Made by a program: the position numbers and the translations under genes
From: Kiritimatiellia bacterium
Lineage (GTDB): Bacteria; Verrucomicrobiota; Kiritimatiellia; RFP12; UBA1067
Reading direction: 5' to 3'
Length of the DNA stretch: 64,000 bases
Assembly: GCA_050949565.1 (NCBI GenBank)
Contig: JBMNFY010000010.1
Span: forward strand, 160,001 to 224,000
Notes under the pieces: model-generated
The model's database searches: none
The model's input: only the letters and a program-made list of their open reading frames with translations
What the model was told of the DNA's origin: nothing
Part shown: in pieces, positions 1 to 51,892 of the stretch
How the letters are laid out: each line of letters opens with the position of its first letter
Position numbering within the stretch: position 1 is the stretch's first letter

Positions 1-95
1 AGACGGCGCGCCGTCTCTATCTCGGACAGAATTTCAGAATGTAACCAAACTAACAAGCCCGCTCCCATGCGGGACAACCAAGGAGGATGCCACCT

Positions 96-40698: not shown

Positions 40699-43600
40699 TC
40701 ACCGCATAAAGAGGACGGTGCCGCCTTCGGAGAGCAACAGGAGGGCGCTGTTGCGACGGACGAGCTTCCATCCAGAGGGTAGCTCCGTGGCAAGCGTCGG
40801 CATGCCGGTGATACCCGTCGTCGTCTGTATGAGCGTGTAGGTCTGTGCGCGATCAAGCGCCTCGGGGTTGTTGATGGTCACGACCACGCCGCTGATATCG
40901 AGCGCGCCGGTGACATCCACAAGGTCGCCCAGATCAGCGCGGTACTGCGTGCCGGGGACGAGGGTGACGTTGGAGAAGGCGAGCGTGCCGACCGCGCCGT
41001 CGCCGCCGGGGCTGAGGACGGAGCCAGAGGCGAGCACGCCGTTCGAGACTGTGCCGCTGCCGGTGACGGTGCGGACAGTCTGGGTGCTGGCGTTCAGATC
41101 GAGCACCGCGCCGGCCGCGAGGTTCACGTCTGCGTCGGCGAGCAGGCGACCGATGTCGTCGGGGTTGGCTGCCGGCCGCACAAAGACGTAGAGGTCGCGG
41201 ATGTCGAACAATCCGGCGTTGTAGGTCCAGGTGTAGTCGTAGGCGGTCGTTTTGTCGGCCGGCGGATTGGGATCGTTGCCGATGCCCACTCCGAGGTCAT
41301 TGTCCCGACTGCCGCAATGGGAGATGGAGAAGAGCACCTGCTGTGCACCCCAGTTGTGGATCTGGAATGAGCCGTGTCCGATGGAGGTGCTGTTGCCACC
41401 GTTATCGTTGAAGTCAAACGCGCTTGAACTGCCGCCGATATCGGGGAGGCCGAAACCGGTCCCGTAGTTGGAGGGCCAGATCTCGAGGTTGCCAGTGTTA
41501 ACGCCGTCGACATCGGTGACGGCGCCGACGTTGGAACGCACGTCCATGTTGTAGACTTTCTGCTGCCACATGAAGGTGGCACCGTTGCGGTTGGGATAAC
41601 CGAGTTTGGTGCGGTCTTGGGTATGGGCGTTGAAGGAGACCCAGACCCATTGCGACTCACTCTCGCCCTTCTTACGGATTTCGAGATAGTAAGCCACGCG
41701 GTCGAAGGGCGCGGTCGCGGCGGAGTTGTCGATGGTGTAGGCCGTGCCGTTATAGGCGTCAGTAGCCTTCGTGGAAACCGGCGAGTAGTAGACGATGTCA
41801 TAGCCGTCGGCGAGGGCACCGACTTTGGCGCGGATGGCGGCCGGTACGGGCATCGTACCGCCGGCGTCGACGAGGCGCAGCGTGCCTTCGTTGACCTGCA
41901 CGTCGGGGGCCGCCGCTTCTTCAACCACGGGCGCGACATCGCGCGTGAGGATGTAGAGGTCGCGACGGGTGTAATCGGTGGCGTTCTCGGTGAAGGTCCA
42001 GTCGAGATTGGCGGAATCATTGGGCTTGTTGCCGATGCCGATGCAGGGCTTGTAGTTAGGCCGCCCGAAGTGGTTGACCGCGAAGAGGGTCTGGTTCAGG
42101 CCGAAGTTATGGACTTGGAAGGAGCCGTAGCCGGCGGCATTGCCGTAGAAACTGTTGCCGCTGCCGCTGTTCCGGTCGTCGAAGTCATATTTGGTACCGT
42201 CACCGACATAACCTCGGTCGAAGGCGTTGGCGGTCGGGAGGGCATGGTTGTAGTCGTTCGGGTACCACTCGATGTTACCGGTACTCACGTCGTCCACAGG
42301 TGTGACATTGGCGTTGGCGCTGGCGCGGACGGTCAGGTGATTGACGCGCGTCTGGAAGCACATCCGCTTGTCGGTGATCGGGAAGGCCAGCTTGGTGCGG
42401 TCGGTGAAGGGCGGCTCGAAGGCGGCCCAGACCCACTGGCGGCCGTACGAGCCGTGCTCGAGGACCATGACATAGGCCACGCGGTCGAAGCGGTTGGAAC
42501 TGTCGGGGTTCTTCACGCTCCAGAAGGTGTCGTCCAAGATGGTGTCCGAGACCGTGGGAATCGAACCCGCATAGATGATGGAGAAGCCCTTGGCGAGATC
42601 GCCCACGCCTTCGGCCACATCGGCAGGGAGTTCCGGGACGACCGTAGAGACCGGTTCGAACGCGATGCCGAGCTCATCGTACGGATTGTTGACGGTGAAG
42701 AGCGAGCCGTCGCCGGGGTCACTGATAAACTCGCAATACTCCACGTTCGGGACGTGGCGCGCGAGGCGGTCGATGCCCCAGACCGGGCGCGTGCCGTCGG
42801 ACTTGGTCCAGTAGCCGCCGACGCCGCCGCCGCCCTGGCCGGCGCGGATTTCGATGGCGTGCGGGCCGGGGGAGAGGGTAACGGTGCAGTGTGTGCCTGC
42901 ATTGCCTTGATTACGGTAGGGCAGGATCGTGGTGAAGCCCTTGTTGAGGATGACGTTGCCGTCGATGCGCAACAGGAAGGTGTCGTCCATGTTCTCCATG
43001 AATGTCCAGGTGACGTTCGTCGACTCCCGGTTCCAGAGATAGCCGGTGTAGACATAGACGGAGTTGTCCGGCCACCAGGCACCGTTGACGGTCGCGCCGC
43101 CGCTCGAGGACCAGCCGTAACCGAAAAGGGCGCGGGTGGAGAGTTGGACGGCGGGGCCGTATGTGGCGGTGCTCACCGGGTTCGTGTTGATGGCGGCACC
43201 GTCGAGGCGGTATTCGCGCAGGCCGGGGATTTTGGCGTTGCGGATGGCAGCGTCCAACTCTTCGGCGCGCGGGATGACGCGGGTCGAGAGGTCAAAGGTG
43301 CCTTCGCCGTCCTTGACGAGCGACGAGGTGGCCAAAGCACCGCCAACAAGCGAACCGCCGTCAGTAACGTGCGTCGTGCGGTTGGTGTGGGGGGTGTTGA
43401 GGACCAACGTACCGCCTACGAAGACGAGGTCAGAACCGTCGGGCAGGGCACCGTCGACAGTGGAGACGAGGGTGCCGCCCGCAAGGGTGGTCGGGCCGCG
43501 GTATGTGTTGACAGCGGCGAGGGCAAGCGTACCGTCGCCGGTCTTGGTGAGACCGCCGTCAAGCGTATCGGGCATGCTGCGGGTGGCCCTGCGGATGCTG

Positions 43601-46600
43601 GCACCGGTGAGCGGGCCGCCGCCATTGAGCGAGACGGAGGGGTCGGAAGTGTAGCCCGTACCGGGCGAGAGGATGCGGAATCCGGTGACCGCGCCGTCAT
43701 TGAGGACGGCTTCGGCAACCGCGCCGACACCGCCGCCACCAGTGACGAGCACGGCGGGCGGTGCGATATAACCGGAACCTTGCGCATTGACTTCGATGTA
43801 GGAGAGCCCCATGCCGGCGGGTTCCAGCGGAAGGTCAAGCGTGGCACCGACACCAGTGGGGGTGTCGATGACTGCGCCGCCGGCATGGACGGCCAGGGTG
43901 GCGGGCACGTTGTTCGCGCCGGTACGCACGATCGAGCCGGACTCGCGGACGGAGAGGGTGCCGCCGTCGAAGTTGATGGCGGCGCGTGCGGTGTTGGCCG
44001 AATTGTTGTTGCCGCCTTTGCGCAGATACTTGGTATCGAGCACGCCGCCCTTGAGGGTGACGGCCGCCAACGGGGAACTGTTGCGGTTGGCGAGTGTCAC
44101 GATGTTGGCCGAAACGCGGGCGTTCTCCTCGATGGTGAGGAAGCCCCATCCGTTGTTGTACCAGTTGACGCTATCCCACATGCAGAGATCAAGGCTGGCG
44201 GTGCCGGTGTCGATGGTGCCGTTGCCGGAGAGGTGGAAGTGGCCGTAGCCGGCGCGGGTACCGAAGGTGCCGCCGTAGTAGGCTGCAGGGTTGTCGCCGC
44301 CTGTGCCTTGGGCGGGAACACTGCCGGAGTTGAAGACGACGCGGCCTTCGCCTTTGACGCGCAGCGTGCCGTAAGCGCTGCTGTTGTGCGAGAGCTGTGT
44401 GTAGCCCTTGTTGGTGAGTGCGCCACCGGAGATCTCGTAGTAGCCGAAGCCCGATTCGCCGATGCGCCCGTCGGCGGCGGCTCCGCCGGTATTGAGGAAA
44501 ACGCCGCCGGTCTGGTAGACCACGCCGGCTGAGGTGCCGTCGCGCCCGACGTGCAGGCGGCCTTGGATGAAGGCGTTGTCAGAGATCGTCAGGACGCCGC
44601 GCGAAGAACCGAGCGTGCCGACGCCGATGGCGGGCTGAGCGCGGTTGTAGCCGTTATCGGTCGTGGTGATAACGGTGTTGCCGGAGAGCGGAAGCATGGC
44701 GCAAGAGGCGGCCCAGTTGTCAACACCGACCTGCACGCCGTAAGGGCCGAGATCGAGGGTGCCGCCATCGAAGCTGTTCAGGTCGAGTGTGCCGTCGTGG
44801 ATGCGTACCGGTCCGCTTACGGGCCAGTTGCCCGTGAGCGAGAGGACGTAGGGTCCGAGTTTGGAGAGGCCGAAGGCGGGCCAGTCGGCGGTGTAGGTAA
44901 GATCGGCTTCAGCCGTGTCGATGCCGAGGTAGGCGGTGGGCGACGTGAAGGCACCCGAGGCGGCGAGTGCTTCGATCTGCGCGAGCGACCAGCCGTCGGC
45001 AGCGTGGCGAACGGCAAATTCGCCGGTGCCGGAGACTGTCAGCGAAGCGGGCGCGCCCGGCACGGAGCCGGGGGCGTAGGCATGGAGCAGCGAGTTGTTG
45101 ACGGTGGTGTGGCCGGTGTAGGTGTTGGCCGGATTGCGCAGGTAGGTGTAGCCGCCGTAGGTCTTGAGGAGTCCGCCTGCCCCGGAGATCTGGCCTGCGA
45201 TGTTGTTGTGCACGTACGACGTTTGTCCGTCGAGGATGGCCTGGCCGCCTGTCAGTGTGACCGGCCCGGCCCAAGTATTGTGATTGGTGGTGCCGGAACG
45301 GACGGTGAAGCGTGCGCCGTCGGCGAGGGTGAGCGACCAGTTTACGGGCGGAACGAGATTGTGGAAGTCGAAGCCCGCGCCGTCGGCGACGGTGAGCGTG
45401 TTGACGGCAGAGCCGCCGAGGTCGGTGGATGCCTCGATCCCGAGAATACCGCCCTCGACATCGATGGCGGTGTCGGGCGTCACGCCGGCGATCTGGGTGG
45501 AGGTGAGGATGAACGAACTGGAGCCGACTTTACTCAGCGAGTGGCCGGCGAAATCGAACAGCCCGTTGCGGATATCGAAGCGGCCACGGGTGCCGTTGTA
45601 GGGGAGCGGGGTGGGGCCGATACCGCCGATCGCGGCGTCGTCGGCGAGCGCGATGGACTTGAAGGCGTTGTACTGGAGCGCATCATGGTCCATGCGCAGG
45701 GCACCGAGTCCGTCCGGACCGCTGCCGGCGATCGTGATGGTCTTGTCGAGGGCGATCGAATTGTTGGGGGCCTGTCCGATGGCCAGCGATCCGCCGTCGG
45801 CAACAGTGACGGACGGCAGGGCGACGCCACCGAGTGACTGGGAGTGGGCGACCTCGAGGATGCCGTTGGAGACGGTTACCGGCCCGGTGAAGGTCGGGCT
45901 CGCAGCGCTGAGGATGACACGTCCCGCATTGTTGAGCGTGAGGGGCGCACTGCCTACGAAGGGGCCGCTGAACGTCTGCGTGACCGTCGCATCAGGCGCG
46001 AGCGCGAGGGGCGCGTCGAGGCGGGTTGTGCCGGTCTGAGAGACCGGTCCGGAGAGCGTTATCTCATCATTGCCGGCCGTGGTCAATGTGGTGGGCGCAC
46101 CGTTATCGATGAGGGCGGCAGAAATGTTAAGCGGACCGCTCAGGGCGATGAGGCCTGATGCAGGCGGTGTGGCTGCGGTAGCGAGCCGTTCGTTCGACAG
46201 GCCGAAACAACCGCTGTGGACGTTGCCGGAGGTCGCGACCGCATTGACGGCGATCTTGAGGGTACCGTTGGCCGGGGCCATGTAGCGGTAGACAATCGCG
46301 TTGGCCGAGTTGGGCTGGCTGGCGTAAATCGTGGTGGTGTCCGGGAAGGAGGATACGCTCGAATGGAACTGGTAGACGCAACGGCGCTCTTGGGTCGAGG
46401 ACGGCGGGTCCCAGGCACGGAAATAGAGCGTGATCTCGTAAATGGCGCCGGGGGTGAGCCCGGTGAGCTGGCCAGTCCAGTTGCTGTTGTAGTTCATGTC
46501 GTAGAGCAGCGAGAGGAGGCCTGAGCAGGTTTCGGGCGGGAGCGAGTTGGTCCATTCGTTCCAGTTGGCATAGCCGTTGCCGTTGGGGAAACCGGAGTAA

Positions 46601-49600
46601 TCGGTGCCGGTACCGTTGGCTGCGCCCTTGGTGAAGGTCACGCCGTTGATGGTGGCGGGGGACTGGTTGCCGAAGTCGATGAGGTGCGAGTAGGTCTTGG
46701 AGGTCGAGAGCCCGGTGGCGGCATCCGAGGTGAGGGGCACGATACGGACGGTGCGTAGGTCGGGATAAGTGATGTCCGCAGACGCGCCGGATGCGGTCAG
46801 GGTGCCGTTGATAACGGAGAGCGGTGCTTCGGGCTGGAGGTAGTTGAGGGCGAGAATGCCGCCGCCCAGATCAAGCGTGGCGGGAGCGGCTGCCGTATAG
46901 TTGAACTGGCCGAGCGTGGTCAGGGGGGCAGCGATGGTGAAGTCGCCTGCAGGCGCGGTGTCGGCTGTCGCGGCGTGACCGGCGGCGTCCGGGAGGGTGT
47001 CGTTCACGATGGCGGCGGCGGGCAGGACCCGCGGCATGAGGCCATCGGCGGTGCTGTAAGTGGCGGGACCGCCATTGAGGATGATGCCGTCAACGGGGCC
47101 GGCAGCGAGGCCGCTGATGAAGATGCGGTTTGCGGCGGTGCCGACCGAGGGGGCGTTGATGGTGAGGACATTGCCGTTGAGGGTGATTGCGGCGAATGTG
47201 ACCGATGACGCCGTGGCTGCGGCCGGGACGGTAATCTGGGAGGCCTCGGTCAGGGTGATGGCCGGGAGGGCGACGTTGTAGTTATCTGCGGCGGCGGGAT
47301 TGAGGGCGAGCGTGCCTCCCGCGAGGGTGAACGTGCCGGAGCCGAGGGACGCGCCTGCGGGGAGTGCGAGCGTGCCGCTTTCGATGGATGTCGCGCCGGA
47401 ATAGGTGTTGGCGGCTGTGAGGGTGAGGGTGCCTGCGCCGGTCTTGGCAAGACCGCCGGTACCGGAGCGGACGCCGGAAAACACGATGGGGCCGGACGCG
47501 TCAAAGACGAATGTACCCGCGCCGGTCATGTCGCCGGTGAGGTTGAGCGTGCCGGAGCCGGCGTTTTCAATGATGGCCCGGTCTTTGTCAACGGTGAATA
47601 TTTTGTCAGTGGAGGACGCGGTGGCGCCGGTGACGCGCAGTCGCGAGTAGATGCCACTGTCGAGCGGATTGACGAAGTTGACGGTCGTGCAGGAGCCGAG
47701 GGGGTTGGGGGTGCCATTGGGGGCGAGGAAGGCGACCTCTACGCTGTTACCCCTGTCGAACGCGAGCGTACCTTGGATGTCGTTGTCCGGATGGTTCAGA
47801 GCCAGCGTGCCCCGCGTCCAGCCGCCTGTGGTTTCAAACCCATTGGGCGCGATGAGTTGGACGTTCATATCGAGTCGTCGGCTCTGTATGGCGATACGGG
47901 CGCGCCTGGCGAGGTCTGAGGGAACGATACGCAGGGCCGCGCCCTCACCGTTCATCGAGCCGCCGACATTGACGGCGAAGTTCCAGTCGTTGCGGCAGAA
48001 GATGTTGGTGGTGTGCGAGGCGAAAATCAGGTTGAGAGGAAAATCATAACTCCAGAATGCGCCGATAGTCGTCCGTTCAGTGAAGGTCAACGGAGCATTG
48101 ATGTGCGATTCGAGCCTGATGTAGTTGGTGTCGGTCTCCTCGTGGGCGGGAGCGCGGCGGAGCGTGTTGAAGGTGATCGGACCGCTCCCGTACAGATAGA
48201 TGCTGCGGCTGGTGGTGTTGGTGTAGCTGAGGGTGAGGGTCTTGGTCGGCTCGTAGTTGTAAGCGTAAAAGTTTCCGTTGACGCACAACGAGGCGTTCAC
48301 GGTCTGATCATTGGCTGCGCCGGCGGGGAGTGTGAGCGTGCCGTTGGCGGCGAGTGTCAGCGTTTCTTCCGGCAGGCCGATCGTGTACGCGGCGGCGTCC
48401 GGGGCGAAGGTAATACCGGCGGCTGTGGCGCTGCTACCCAAGCCGATGGCTGTTTTGCCGTTGCCGTCACCGGTGAAAAACGCGGTTTCGGCGGAGGTGG
48501 GCACGGCACCGCCGCTCCAGTTGGCGGCGGTTGACCAGAGGGCGTCGGCACCCAGACCGGTCCACGCGCACGCGCCAGGCGTGTAGAAAGAGCCGACTAC
48601 GCCGGACAGGGAGGTGGTGAAGGGACCGCCGTTTGAGGCGGGAATGAGGTCGGTGATGGTACCGTTGAAGGAGAGTGTGGAAACGGTCGCTGGCGTAAGT
48701 CCGCTAAGGGTGAGTGTGATGCTGCGCTGGTCGGCGGCAAGCGGGGATATCGCAGTGACGCTACCGGCGGGTGCCACCGTCCAGGCGGTCGGGGTGGCGA
48801 CGGCAGGGGAGGCATCGAGGTCGATGGGCTTGGAGAAGGTGACGGTAGCCGTATTGTCCGGGGCTAAGCGAACGGTGGTGACGACGGGCGGCGCAAAGTC
48901 GCCGTACGGCGTGACGATGTTGGTGATGGCAGGGAACCACGCAGCCGCCATCTTGCCGTAGCCGGTGTCGTTCGGATGGAGATTGTCGTACATGTCCGTT
49001 CGTTCGAGGTAGGCGTGCATGTCCAAGAAATGGACACGGCGTCCGGCGTTTTGATGGGCCTGGACGACTCCTGCGACATACGGGTTGAAATGGTCTTTAA
49101 TGAGGACATATCTCGAATCCGAGTCATTGGCGCCGCGCTTCAGCAGGGTGGTCACGATGATGTGCGCGTAGGGGCGGGCGGCAGGCGATACGGGCGATGA
49201 GCGCGTCGAGTTCATCGATGGTGCCGGGGAAATTCGGCGCGTCGCCGGTGTCGTTCGTGCCGATGTGAACCAACACCACGTCAGGGTCCGCAATCTGCGC
49301 GAGCCAGCCGAGGATGTTTTCGTAGAGACCGCTACTGGCGGCGGAAACACGCCAGCCGCTGTGTCCCTCGTGGTTGATTTCGTCACCGAGGCCGGGATGC
49401 GTATTCGAGGTCTGCGTGCCGATGTAGTCGACGTTGTACCCCGCATTGGTGAGTGTCACGTAGAGCGGGTAGCGGTAACCGCCACCGGTTCCGCTGTTGT
49501 TCGATCCGTATGTGATGGAGTCGCCGAGCGGCATGATACGCAACGGCGGCGGCTGCGCCAGCACGGGCGTGACAGCGAGTAACGCACCCACACCGACCAA

Positions 49601-49657
49601 CAACCAACGGCAGGCAACGGAACACAGACGGTTAGAACCGGACAGACGGATTGACAT
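40699..49657 (-). CDS. Giant (about 2980 aa) secreted multidomain protein: SGNH esterase, PATR beta-helix, PA14-like and duplicated unnamed domain; frameshifted near 49180
   Basis: RBS AAGGAG plus ATG 49657, signal peptide, SGNH blocks PLGDSITYG / HIGTND in the ORF-49124 frame continuing as HIIVTTL...DNLHPN in the ORF-40699 frame; many GGLAKTGAGTLTLTAANTYSGAT repeats; ends GGTVLFMR. Confidence 0.82.
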
Positions 49658-49681
49658 AAGGCACTCCTTTTCACTCACTGA

Positions 49682-49957
49682 CAAGGGTAACCTCGCTTCG
49701 CTCGGTGGCTTTCAGACAGGAAAGAACGCGAAGAACAGCCCTTGTTTCTTCAAGGGTAACCTCGCTTCGCTCGGTGGCTTTCAGACAGGAAAGAACGCGA
49801 AGAACAGCCCTTGTTTCTTCAAGGGTAACCTCGCTTCGCTCGGTGGCTTTCAGACAGGAAAGAACGCGAAGAACAGCCCTTGTTTCTTCAAGGGTAACCT
49901 CGCTTCGCTCGGTGGCTTTCAGACAGGAAAGAACGCGAAGAACAGCCCTTGTTTCTT
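49682..49957. repeat. Four identical tandem copies of a 69-bp unit
   Basis: CAAGGGTAACCTCGCTTCGCTCGGTGGCTTTCAGACAGGAAAGAACGCGAAGAACAGCCCTTGTTTCTT starting at 49682, 49751, 49820 and 49889. Confidence 0.97.
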
Positions 49958-50023
49958 GTACGTTACCTTTTCACCTGCACCCACAGGCAGACCGAACGAA
50001 TCCTTTCTTTCCTGCTGGCCGGA

Positions 50024-50052
50024 ACCATATTGCATTCACCGGCCAGTGTCAA
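50024..50052 (-). promoter_or_regulatory. Outward-facing sigma70 promoter downstream of the IS91-like transposase
   Basis: Minus strand TTGACA (50052-50047), 17 bp spacer, TATGGT (50029-50024); overlapped by the inverted repeat CTGGCCGG/CCGGCCAG. Confidence 0.65.
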
Positions 50053-50076
50053 GCGCAAAAATCAAATTATTTCCGA

Positions 50077-51363
50077 TCAGATCGCCAGAGTCAGTTGCCT
50101 GTAAACCGGCGACAGAGAAACCGCCGGACAATACGTCGCCGGCGCCGTGCGCGCAGACAGGTTCCCGCCCCATTCGTAGACCACACCTTTCGTCTTGGTC
50201 CAGATGCGGATCAGCAGCATGTTCGCGGAGCCGCAGGCAGGGCAACGTATCCCGCCCTTGGCAAAACGCCCCTCCAGTTTCCGGCTGCCCGGCTGTCCGG
50301 GGCGTTGGCGGGCAAAGTACCGCGCCACCTGTCCGGCGCGGCGCACCAGAACCTGCAACGCATCGGCGACCAGGGCATGAATCTTCTTCCGCACCGGCCG
50401 GGCATAGATGCCGTAGTAACGCACCATCCGGAACCCCTTCGGCGGGAGATGCCGTATCATCCGCCCGATGAACTCGGACGCCGGGATTGTCTCATGCACT
50501 TCGCCCTTGCGATGATCCTCGTACCGGTACGTGACATTCTGTCCGTCGTAGTTCTCGATGCGCCGGATCGAGATCGGCGGGGCGCTCACGTACTTGCACA
50601 GGTAGATTACCAGCCGCTCCACCGGGCCTGACTCCGGCATGCAGTCGCAGTCAAACCCCGTCGGATACTTCGGAAACATCGAGCCCAGCCTGGCGTGCCA
50701 AGCGGCTTCATAGGCCGTGCCGCGCACCGCCTTTCTCAGAGCCGTGAGAACATGGTACTGCCACTTCTTGCGCAGTTTCTTCGTGTCGAAGAAGTTCACC
50801 TGCCGCCAGGCGTTGTCCTTGTCAATGCCGCCCTCGCTGACCACAAAGTGAAGGTGCGGATTGCTGTTGCCGGCCCGTCCGTGCAGTTGCAGCACCGCCA
50901 TGATTCCCACGCGAATCTTTTTCGCGCGCCGCCATTCCCGAATCAGCTCCTTGACCGCCACCGCACCGGCATCCATGTACACTTTTAAAAACGCCTCTTC
51001 CGCCAAGACCAGGGGCCGCAGCATTTTTGGCACGGTCAGCACCACTTGCCGGTGGATCACGCCCTCAAAGAGCACTTTCCTCGCCTGATTCAACCACTCG
51101 TCCACCGCCATCTTGAAGCAGCGCAGACACAGCCGACTCTTGCAGGTGAATCCGACCTTCTTTGTCGTTTGGCAGTCCCGGCACTGATACTCGTAGTAGC
51201 CTTCGCGAATATCGCCGCACGAGAGCATGCGTTCGACGTTTTCCTGCCAGTGTTCCGGGATCGCCCGACCATGTTCCCGCTCGTAACTGGCCGCGAAACC
51301 TGTCCAATGCTCCATAAATATTCGCTGCCACAGGTTGAGTTCCTCAAACGGCCGTTGTGTCAT
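50077..51363 (-). CDS. IS91-family (Y2 HUH) transposase
   Basis: Zn-binding N-domain (CGD...CRDC...FTCKSRLCLRC), HRQVVLTVP, HUH motif NPHLHFVV, YLCKYV (YxxxY), HLPPKGFRMVRYYG, CPACG. Confidence 0.93.
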   Translation of the reverse strand: MTQRPFEELNLWQRIFMEHWTGFAASYEREHGRAIPEHWQENVERMLSCGDIREGYYEYQCRDCQTTKKVGFTCKSRLCLRCFKMAVDEWLNQARKVLFEGVIHRQVVLTVPKMLRPLVLAEEAFLKVYMDAGAVAVKELIREWRRAKKIRVGIMAVLQLHGRAGNSNPHLHFVVSEGGIDKDNAWRQVNFFDTKKLRKKWQYHVLTALRKAVRGTAYEAAWHARLGSMFPKYPTGFDCDCMPESGPVERLVIYLCKYVSAPPISIRRIENYDGQNVTYRYEDHRKGEVHETIPASEFIGRMIRHLPPKGFRMVRYYGIYARPVRKKIHALVADALQVLVRRAGQVARYFARQRPGQPGSRKLEGRFAKGGIRCPACGSANMLLIRIWTKTKGVVYEWGGNLSARTAPATYCPAVSLSPVYRQLTLAI

Positions 51364-51675
51364 CCGCTGTCTCCTGTAACTCCTTGATATAACTCCTTGC
51401 CAGAGAGCAGACTATAGACCGTGTTCATTACAGGTTACAAGCAGAGAAATAAAGAACTGCGGATTTACGGACCGTGAGTTCCGAATCAGAAAGGAGATGG
51501 TCCACGGCTATGAAGGAGCGAGGCGCTTCGAGGTTCTGCGGTTCAACTGGGTTATGGGTAACCATCAGCTAAAAAACATGTCTCTTTACACGATTACTTG
51601 CTTTACTGGCTTAATCAGCAGTCGAGTTACAGGTTCCCATACATTCGTTAAAAACCGCACACAACGTTAATGCGT

Positions 51676-51703
51676 ATTTTAAATAGTTTTCCCTTTTAGT
51701 CAA
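51676..51703 (-). promoter_or_regulatory. Sigma70-type promoter, probably the native promoter of the giant protein gene
   Basis: Minus strand TTGACT (51703-51698), 16 bp spacer, TAAAAT (51681-51676) in an AT-rich region. Confidence 0.5.
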
Positions 51704-51791
51704 TAGCCCGCACAAATTTTTTTTAGGCGCGCTGAATCCTTTCAATGGACAGTCGAGAGGGGATGGTCTAACATCTCTGGCAATGTGAGGA

Positions 51792-51892
51792 GAGGCTCTT
51801 GCAAAACCCCTCGTGGCATGGGCGTCCCGCCCATGAGACACGGGCAAGATGCCCGTGCCACACCTGCAAGCAAGGGGTTTTGCAAGACCCTC
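51792..51892. mobile_element. MITE-like unit: 19-bp inverted repeats enclosing a REPIN
   Basis: GAGGCTCTTGCAAAACCCC ... GGGGTTTTGCAAGACCCTC (18/19 match) around REPs at 51813-51835 and 51839-51861. Confidence 0.65.

Follow-up and report, generated by a model that had tools for sequence, protein, structure and literature searches.

Insertion sequences (IS) of the IS91 family are rolling-circle elements with two dissimilar ends. In the account given in the available part of PMC13181058, terIS lies upstream of the transposase gene and has one subterminal palindrome, oriIS lies downstream and has one or two, the target is not duplicated, insertion takes place beside a tetranucleotide resembling the terIS cleavage site, and the bottom strand is used, as a single-stranded circle. 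In ISCR1, outward promoters in the oriIS region have been proven by experiment and drive the downstream gene (PMC6218425, in the portion available). IS91 and ISCR elements are important movers of genes, and the recognition of their ends is poorly understood. The element described here is found in a 64,000-nucleotide (nt) stretch of DNA from a Kiritimatiellia bacterium (GenBank assembly GCA_050949565.1, contig JBMNFY010000010.1), termed the window, whose own numbering is used below; all window features discussed are on its minus strand. The segment downstream of the transposase gene is read, with a probability of about 0.7, as the origin-side end of an IS91-family rolling-circle IS of Kiritimatiellia and other anaerobic-digester bacteria, with an outward promoter, a leader and an amplified terminal module. 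A preliminary description had taken this segment for a promoter-driven, structured guide that selects the target by base pairing. Its account of a promoter-driven, structured end stands; the target guide does not.

The region was searched against 61 related genomes. One of these, G004, has the uninterrupted site, in which query positions 1-55 are joined to 2019-2101 with one G in common. Comparison of this empty site with the filled site of the window gives one insertion at 51645..49682 of 1,964 bp, of which the element proper accounts for 1,757 bp and three additional copies of its terminal 69 bp for the remainder. At this single pair of sites there is no target duplication, only at most one ambiguous shared G. 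A copy in G033 is 98% identical and has a single unit, G041 has a copy with two units and G002 one with four. No second copy was found in the window's own genome. The segment in question is absent from the G004 empty site and is therefore part of the element, so that the preliminary description does not fail on the ground, named in it, that the region might lie outside.

tnpA (50077..51363) encodes a predicted 428 amino acid (aa) protein with Pfam matches to Y2_Tnp (2e-36) and Zn_Tnp_IS91 (6e-18). It scores 238 bits, against a cut-off of 125, with the NCBIfam equivalog NF033538, "IS91 family transposase", and its translation contains the HLH (HUH) motif and RYYGIY. By these matches the tnpA product reads as a complete HUH/Y2 transposase of the IS91 family, zinc-binding domain at the N terminus included, and the placement of the segment downstream of an IS91-like transposase is borne out.

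Relatives were collected by a protein-based scan with one genome per species, which gave 58 loci, and by searching metagenome contigs for the pattern of the conserved terminus, which gave at least 120 stretches. After removal of duplicates by flank, 127 right ends drawn from both scans were available among the matches listed. All 127 finish with ...GCGAGGTTACCCTTG or a one-letter variant of it, followed by unrelated flank. The left, transposase-proximal end of the window copy (51645..51591) consists of AATGTATGGGAACCTGTAAC, a small hairpin and a (G)TAAAGCAAG box. Its start, AATG[TA]A[TAG]G[AG]GAACCTGTAAC, recurs with different left flanks in seven relatives (L019, L020, L021, L026, L029, L061 and L066), although the small hairpin differs between relatives, whereas the right end is long and conserved. 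The two ends are thus dissimilar in the manner of IS91, with one small hairpin at the left and a small palindrome plus a covarying hairpin at the right. By analogy with IS91 (PMC13181058, as far as available) the left end would be of the terIS type. The transposase-distal segment is read as a putative oriIS because the element fits the IS91 plan of a simple left end and a long conserved right end.

Read outward from tnpA, the right end would comprise three layers. The first is an outward sigma-70-type promoter directly past the tnpA stop codon, TTGACA-17-TATGGT at 50052..50024, which was found by motif scan and by its conserved position. The second is a leader of about 60 nt. It starts with the box CAGGAAAGAA (50014-50005), nine nucleotides past the -10 box, which is followed by the conserved box TTCGTTCGGT (50000-49991) and the small palindrome CTGCCTGTGGGTGCAGG (49990-49974), both kept across the window's clade. 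TTCGTTCGGT is complementary, with one T.G pair, to ACCGAGCGAA of the terminal unit. The leader has the appearance of an ancient terminal module that has since decayed, and TTCGTTCGGT and CTGCCTGTGGGTGCAGG together (50000..49974) are termed unit 0. The third layer is the 69-bp terminal module itself, which has an A-rich head with (A)AGGG, a covarying hairpin and an invariant, single-stranded GGTTACCCTTG at the end of the element.

Directly before the first unit is a pseudo-terminus, GGTAACGTAC (49967..49958), which resembles the true terminus GGTTACCCTTG and corresponds to the array starts in relatives. Terminal module copy 1, delimited by repeat analysis and alignment, spans 49957..49889. Its A-rich head includes CAAGGG (49951-49946), and its hairpin is formed by the arms CTTCGC (49940-49935) and GCGAAG (49908-49903) with TTCTTTCCTG (49933-49924) in the loop; the invariant terminus GGTTACCCTTG occupies 49899-49889. 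Three more identical modules follow at 49888-49820, 49819-49751 and 49750-49682. Tandem Repeats Finder gives a perfect tandem repeat at 49682-49957 with a period of 69, 4.0 copies and 100% matches. TTCTTTCCTG and GTTACCCTTG each occur four times because both sit within the repeat unit, and GTTACCCTTG, which had been taken for a junction, is the element's own invariant last 10-11 nt; the final T alone is flank.

To examine the hairpin, 49 diverse terminal modules were aligned and base pairs were counted per column. The arms are of the form CTCGCTnC / GnAGCGAG and two-sided changes are seen in four of the eight pairs, most clearly at column pair 40-74 (GC 11, CG 6, UA 2). The predicted stem of the terminal hairpin therefore covaries. 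The HUH/Y2 transposase would recognize the hairpin and terminus on single-stranded DNA and nick at the terminus, as in IS91. An invariant 11-nt terminus beside a covarying hairpin defines the sequence needs of the transposase.

Outside the terminus little is shared. The flank has A or G at +1 in 112 of 124 cases and A at +2 in 97, and the IS91-type tetranucleotide CTTG/GTTC (or GTCC) was not found next to the putative oriIS in these 124 flanks. On the other strand the flank reads ..T[T/C]^, which has only the last two letters in common with GTTC. It resembles this element's left terminus (..CATT^) and all of the unit-unit junctions (..TCTT^, ..ATTT^, ..TATT^). The deviation is a subgroup difference and is not by itself grounds for exclusion from the IS91 family. 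Targeting of ribosome-binding sites was also considered. Among the 124 flanks, 20 have a Shine-Dalgarno-like pentamer no more than 20 nt from the terminus, compared with 7.5% of random 20-mers, which is a modest trend and not a rule.

Several copies have other sequences of note beside them. A partly palindromic motif around CATCCCTATGGGATGCTAGTGA is found in L021 (3180-3225), L027 (1031-1075), L005 (196-240), L106, where it is upstream of the unit, and L120. This sequence could be a further small repeat element, or else a site at which the IS prefers to insert. G033 and G041, which belong to different families, have more than 50 nt of identical right flank. In L025 (2752-2800) a 15-nt inverted copy of the right terminus (CCAAGGGTAACCTCG) precedes the left end and may be the scar of an aberrant or head-to-head event.

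The terminal module is amplified repeatedly. Among the 127 listed ends, 88 have one unit, 34 have two, one has three and four have four, i.e. 39 have two to four. Where the array is clear of contig ends the corresponding numbers are 58, 12, 0 and 3 (15 of 73 with at least two). Further contigs that end in the apparent start of another unit were left uncounted. The four units of the window are backed by its 4.66-Mb, 21-contig assembly and the two units of G041 by an 849-kb contig. Unit sequences are quite different between lineages, and unit lengths are 67, 68, 69, 70, 71, 73, 78 and 96 bp. The junctions read CCCTTG|AA in all 40 arrays listed, with an extra G in L005, and where an array start is visible it always follows a terminus-like motif (GGTAACGTAC, GGTAAAGAAC, GGTAGCATGT and similar sequences of GGTAA.G.AC-like or GGT..-type). 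Near-identical copies hold one, two or four units. G033 and G041 have the same right flank with one and two units respectively, and differ by one G at the cut. In a contig from an RNA library (X15), a flank with a Shine-Dalgarno sequence and ATG abuts 49957, i.e. this copy ends at the inner site. Full-text literature searches found no description of tandemly repeated oriIS modules; recurrent tandem amplification of a terminal module, always bounded at the terminus, is an apparently undescribed feature.

The arrays may have arisen by the action of the transposase. At 69 nt inward from the end, GGTAACGTAC^AA imitates the true terminus with its target (GGTTACCCTTG^RA), so that the transposase could cut and rejoin at this inner site. 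Cutting and rejoining at this pseudo-terminus would lose or gain whole modules, and unequal recombination would then shift the module number further. The most serious alternative, although a less probable one, is that the tandem copies are passive. Replication slippage at the hairpin followed by unequal recombination would make them, no role of the transposase and no function would be needed, and the exact ends would reflect a filter imposed by transposition. All units are the same in 19 of 24 arrays with at least two full units, as recent expansion or contraction predicts; flanks and unit heads both start A-rich, which provides 2-3 nt of microhomology; and tandem repeats of about this size are generally unstable. 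However, the inner boundary is at the homologous position after a terminus-like motif in units of 67-96 bp with quite different sequences, one-nucleotide extras (G) are present exactly at the cut in L005 and L027, and one copy finishes at the inner site. These features weigh against passive copies. The natural variation in module number, cut exactly at the terminus, could reveal how a Y2 enzyme uses its two tyrosines at a pseudo-terminus.

Other irregularities were also observed. L137 (55-189) has two copies of the 22-nt unit head. One contig in run X16, with a loose end at 49877 (window 49877-49888), has one unit, 11 nt equal to the head of the next unit (AAGAAACAAGG), an ATG and then unrelated sequence; it has either a truncated second unit or a flank that resembles a unit head by chance.

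The TTGACA-17-TATGGT promoter-like site of the preliminary description is present and is conserved beyond chance. Six promoter-like sites are found in 49400-51800 compared with 1.0 expected. Upstream sequence is long enough in 81 ends, and 49 of these carry the pattern TTGACN-16..18-TAnnnT, with none on the opposite strand and 0.45 expected from shuffled sequences. The 49 ends fall into 26 sequence groups. Their -35 box is 127-181 nt before the terminus, with a spacing that is mostly 139-144 or 160-166 nt. The transposases of the carriers are only 46-75% identical to that of the window, and the hexamers are kept but the surrounding sequence is not. In L152, 337 nt before the terminus, the promoter region (TTGACA...TAGTCT) is doubled, with the copies about 60 nt apart.

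The promoter would transcribe across the end into the downstream gene. Downstream of the ends, coding sequence is more often on the same strand than on the opposite strand (0.354, versus 0.155 of random positions), and an open reading frame (ORF) of at least 100 aa begins within 40 nt of the end in 50 of 104 cases. A conserved near-consensus outward promoter with a structured leader would explain this frequent placement before genes of the same orientation. In the window, the flank beyond the last unit (49681..49124) has the remnant of a 5' untranslated region, a Shine-Dalgarno sequence AAGGAG (49669-49664), an ATG at 49657 and, by ORF and profile analysis, a GDSL-lipase-like ORF. The native promoter-like site of this gene, TTGACT-16-TAAAAT (51703..51676), is now 1,964 bp further upstream through the insertion. 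The G004 empty site places the insertion point about 30 nt downstream of the native promoter and about 12 nt before the Shine-Dalgarno sequence; the GDSL-lipase-like gene has been cut off from its native promoter because the element landed between the two. The outward promoter of the element probably supplies the replacement, and here its transcript would enter the GDSL-lipase-like and giant-protein genes. The latter is a 2,915-aa ORF (49446..40699) with passenger-associated-transport repeats (PATR) and an Ig-like domain, whose start is overlapped in another frame by the GDSL-lipase-like ORF (49684..49124). Either a single giant surface protein is interrupted here by a frameshift or an error in the sequence, or the two ORFs are separate genes that overlap.

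A different role for the promoter, which is unlikely on present evidence, is that it serves the element. It would read across a right-left junction, in a circle or in head-to-tail copies, into tnpA, and the leader would be the 5' end of the transposase mRNA. Conservation of promoter and leader across transposases of only 46-75% identity is consistent with selection at the level of the element, no terminator-like site is found between promoter and terminus in the one-unit copy, and IS91 forms circles in which oriIS and terIS abut (PMC13181058, available part). However, no circle junction was seen in the contigs of three RNA runs and one DNA run, and according to the same part of that source the double-stranded IS91 circle did not integrate. 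In addition, tnpA has a promoter-like site of its own upstream (51440..51411), and solo right ends with the promoter persist before host genes, which fits a host-gene role. These are L199 (G014:C29:7560-8090) and L200 (G014:C6:34020-34550), degenerate right ends with promoter region, leader and decayed terminus, whose promoter regions stand directly before the Shine-Dalgarno sequence and ATG of a host gene. They look like transposon ends retained as promoters.

Four matches in G014 had been candidates for miniature elements. Only L015 qualifies, since L199 and L200 are the solo right ends just described and L006 is a right-end fragment. L015 (1483-1618; G014:C56) is a transposase-less miniature that joins the outermost 21 nt of the left end directly to the terminal ~118 nt of the right end and has no promoter. 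The transposase-less derivatives L149 and L120 retain a longer left end; the right end of L120 is the terminal unit only. A terminator reading of the unit-junction hairpin CCCTTGAAGAAACAAGGG was rejected. It scores as terminator-like, but there are three such sites compared with 2.9 expected, and its tail is T-poor.

The leader contains a second feature that was not found described in the literature searched, i.e. pairing of its start with the loop of the terminal hairpin. As had been stated, CAGGAAAGAA (50014-50005) pairs without a mismatch with TTCTTTCCTG (49933-49924). Leader and loop are perfectly complementary over 9-10 nt, with different sequences, in L001, L019, L181, L022 and L028. Pairs from other lineages are GACGAGGAAA with TTTCCTCGTC, TGCGGAAAGG with CCTTTCCGCA, AGACAGGGA with TCCCTGTCT, and CTGAAGATG with CATCTTCAG. 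An exact-match test took, for 24 lineage representatives, the unique longest complement to the hairpin loop within 328 nt upstream. The unique best complement starts between -3 and +30 nt from the end of the -10 box in nine of the 24 lineages, with 2.5 expected (binomial P 4e-4). For four lineages, that of the window among them, the start is 9-12 nt past the -10 box, right where the predicted transcript begins. The 10-bp stem is thus beyond chance and recurs with different sequences, although not in all lineages. A duplex-energy scan for the loop partner was dominated by G+C-rich coding sequence and was set aside for the exact-match test. A helix at the 5' terminus of an RNA, e.g. one stabilizing the outward transcript, appears to be the more natural reading of the stem, since the complement sits at the predicted transcription start. 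By pairing with the loop, the 5' end would fold the leader into a closed and stable domain.

All or most of the stretch is present in 20 public runs from 20 studies, mostly metagenomes of bioreactors, digesters and wastewater, and six of these are RNA libraries. Three RNA runs (metatranscriptomes) and one DNA run were examined as contigs. Contigs of all three metatranscriptomes cover the element, i.e. transposase gene, units and flank, and one spans 49351-49711 without a difference, from the flanking gene to 30 nt into the last unit. Contigs with loose ends at 49681, 49749 and 49887 show that this terminus is also followed by different flanks in the communities sampled. Word depth in the three RNA libraries is in the thousands for unit-region contigs and 16-77 for the tnpA contig; in the DNA run it is 97-711 versus 90. 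The excess in the RNA libraries is only a weak hint, as these depths cannot rank parts of the gene, because units of other lineages are summed and a unit fits four places. The low depth over 49948-50028 is no evidence against a transcript start near 50017. Comparison of 48500-51500 with Rfam at E<=1 yielded just two chance matches below threshold, both outside the segment, and the literature searches gave nothing relevant on the structure of an IS91 transposase or on end-derived RNA.

A more speculative proposal, and a quite improbable one, is that the 69-bp module is a self-contained mini-cassette with terminus-like head, hairpin and cleavage site, which the Y2 transposase would excise and re-insert as a tiny single-stranded circle. 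The module number (0-4 seen) would then vary reversibly under the control of the transposase. Since every module also belongs to a promoter-driven leader that pairs through its 5' end with the module's loop, this number would tune an abundant end-derived RNA or the expression of the captured gene downstream, and a rolling-circle IS would be a portable promoter with an adjustable leader.

The base pairing that had suggested a guide can be judged from the same 49 modules. GGTAAC (49967-49962) and ACAAGGG (49952-49946) are indeed reverse complements of GTTACC and CCCTTGT, but conservation extends only to AGGG:CCCT. The CAAGGG/CCCTTG pairing shrinks to these four inner pairs in most lineages. The inner pairs are present in 41-49 of the 49 modules and the outer two are unpaired in 40 and 35, respectively. 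The covariation of the internal 6-7-mers with the junction that the preliminary description called for was looked for and not seen, with no two-sided change in any of the six pairs. Invariant AGGG:CCCT pairs say nothing for or against pairing, and modules with GGA, AGGC or GGCC in place of AGGG keep the same terminus. GGTAAC is replaced in relatives by GGTGAA, GGTAAA, GGTAAG or GGTACG, and GGTAAC and ACAAGGG are in the wrong order for pairing with the terminus in one helix. The 6-7-mers match the element's own invariant terminus and not the flank, and the 124 flanks vary apart from the purine at +1 and A at +2. No RNA segment that is complementary to the target and covaries with it was found in this material. 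HUH enzymes act on DNA hairpins without RNA. The promoter is conserved, the word depth of the unit region is far above that of the tnpA contig in three RNA libraries (a weak point, with units of other lineages summed), and the (A)AGGG 5' of the hairpin is complementary to the terminal CCC(T) in 41-49 of 49 modules, the same topology in which guide and cleavage site are reportedly arranged at IS608 ends. A miniature copy, L015, has neither promoter nor leader. On the whole, a promoter-driven RNA or single-stranded DNA guide whose 6-7-mers choose or cleave the target in the manner of a bridge RNA or of IS608 is very improbable. The conserved AGGG/CCCT complement might play a part in recognition by the transposase of its own cleavage site, as in IS608. 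IS608-type ends are named in the available part of PMC5876387.

Several points weigh against reading the segment as an oriIS with outward promoter, paired leader and transposase-made arrays. Only one empty site was found, and the assignment of oriIS and terIS and of the cleaved strand comes from analogy with IS91. The purine-then-A flank differs from the CTTG/GTTC of IS91, IS801 and IS1294. Rules for sigma-70-type promoters are assumed to apply in this phylum. Module counts in short-read assemblies are lower bounds, and the role of the transposase in the arrays is put forward as a hypothesis, as slippage or unequal crossing-over with a filter for intact termini gives the same picture. As to structure, the 132-nt segment folded as single-stranded DNA is no better than shuffles (z -0.55 for the plus and -0.64 for the minus strand). 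The unique leader/loop complement is missing from the expected place in 15 of 24 lineages, and the duplex-energy scan put the best loop partner near the promoter in only six of 24. Cognate leader/loop pairs do bind better than non-cognate ones (-18.8 compared with -15.7 kcal/mol; 0 of 5,000 permutations as low), which favors the pairing, although shared G+C content inflates the test. L015 is also without the 5' arm of the stem. The strand test favored the top strand in 12 cases and the bottom in 13, and the hairpins have G.T 18 times and A.C 20 times; both tests are neutral, so that RNA and single-stranded DNA are not distinguished. The contigs give no start, strand or level of transcription, and RNA libraries may hold DNA. 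For annotation, an amplified oriIS end is the likely explanation when a "CRISPR-like" or "structured RNA" signal turns up beside a Y2 transposase.

Among known systems, the IS110 family has a recombinase of the DEDD type and a bridge RNA whose loops base-pair with the target as well as the donor. All that the present element has in common with it is the broad notion of a structured transcript made from a promoter at the element end; the recombinase is unrelated and no complement to the flank is found here. In IS608 of the IS200/IS605 family, cleavage sites are recognized by base pairing with a guide segment beside the subterminal hairpin. The HUH enzyme, the subterminal hairpin and a segment 5' of it complementary to the cut (AGGG/CCCT) are similar. 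However, the IS200/IS605 enzyme is Y1 and the present one Y2, the IS608 guide also sets the target whereas the flanks here are nearly free, and no covariation is seen here, since AGGG and CCCT are both invariant.

Head-to-tail junctions and tandem arrays of Helitrons are taken as a by-product of rolling-circle transposition in the available parts of PMC5876387, PMC4067079 and PMC7492417. Helitron and Helentron arrays are the nearest analogy to the module arrays, although they consist of whole elements or internal satellites in eukaryotes, and in the present bacterial IS the repeated unit is a terminal module of 67-96 bp whose limits fall exactly at the cleavage site. ISCR1 also has outward promoters (PCR1-1, PCR1-2, POUT) between the transposase gene and the oriIS end (PMC6218425, available part), and the window element similarly sits between a gene and its native promoter. 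Unlike ISCR1, there is a single TTGACA-type promoter, predicted from sequence and far closer to consensus, its spacing to the terminus is conserved, and the leader pairs with the loop of the terminal hairpin.

With the IS91 family itself (IS91, IS801, IS1294) the element shares transposase family and domains, the lack of target duplication, a simple left end with one small hairpin, and a short, weakly specific target beside the right end. The right end, downstream of tnpA, is likewise complex, having hairpins as well as a conserved terminus. The present subgroup differs in its terminus, GGTTACCCTTG, and in its flank preference, which on the tnpA strand is a purine followed by A (..T[T/C]^ on the opposite strand) in place of CTTG/GTTC. 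It differs further in a near-consensus outward promoter conserved through the subgroup, and in the tandem amplification of its terminal module, seen in roughly one-fifth to one-third of copies.

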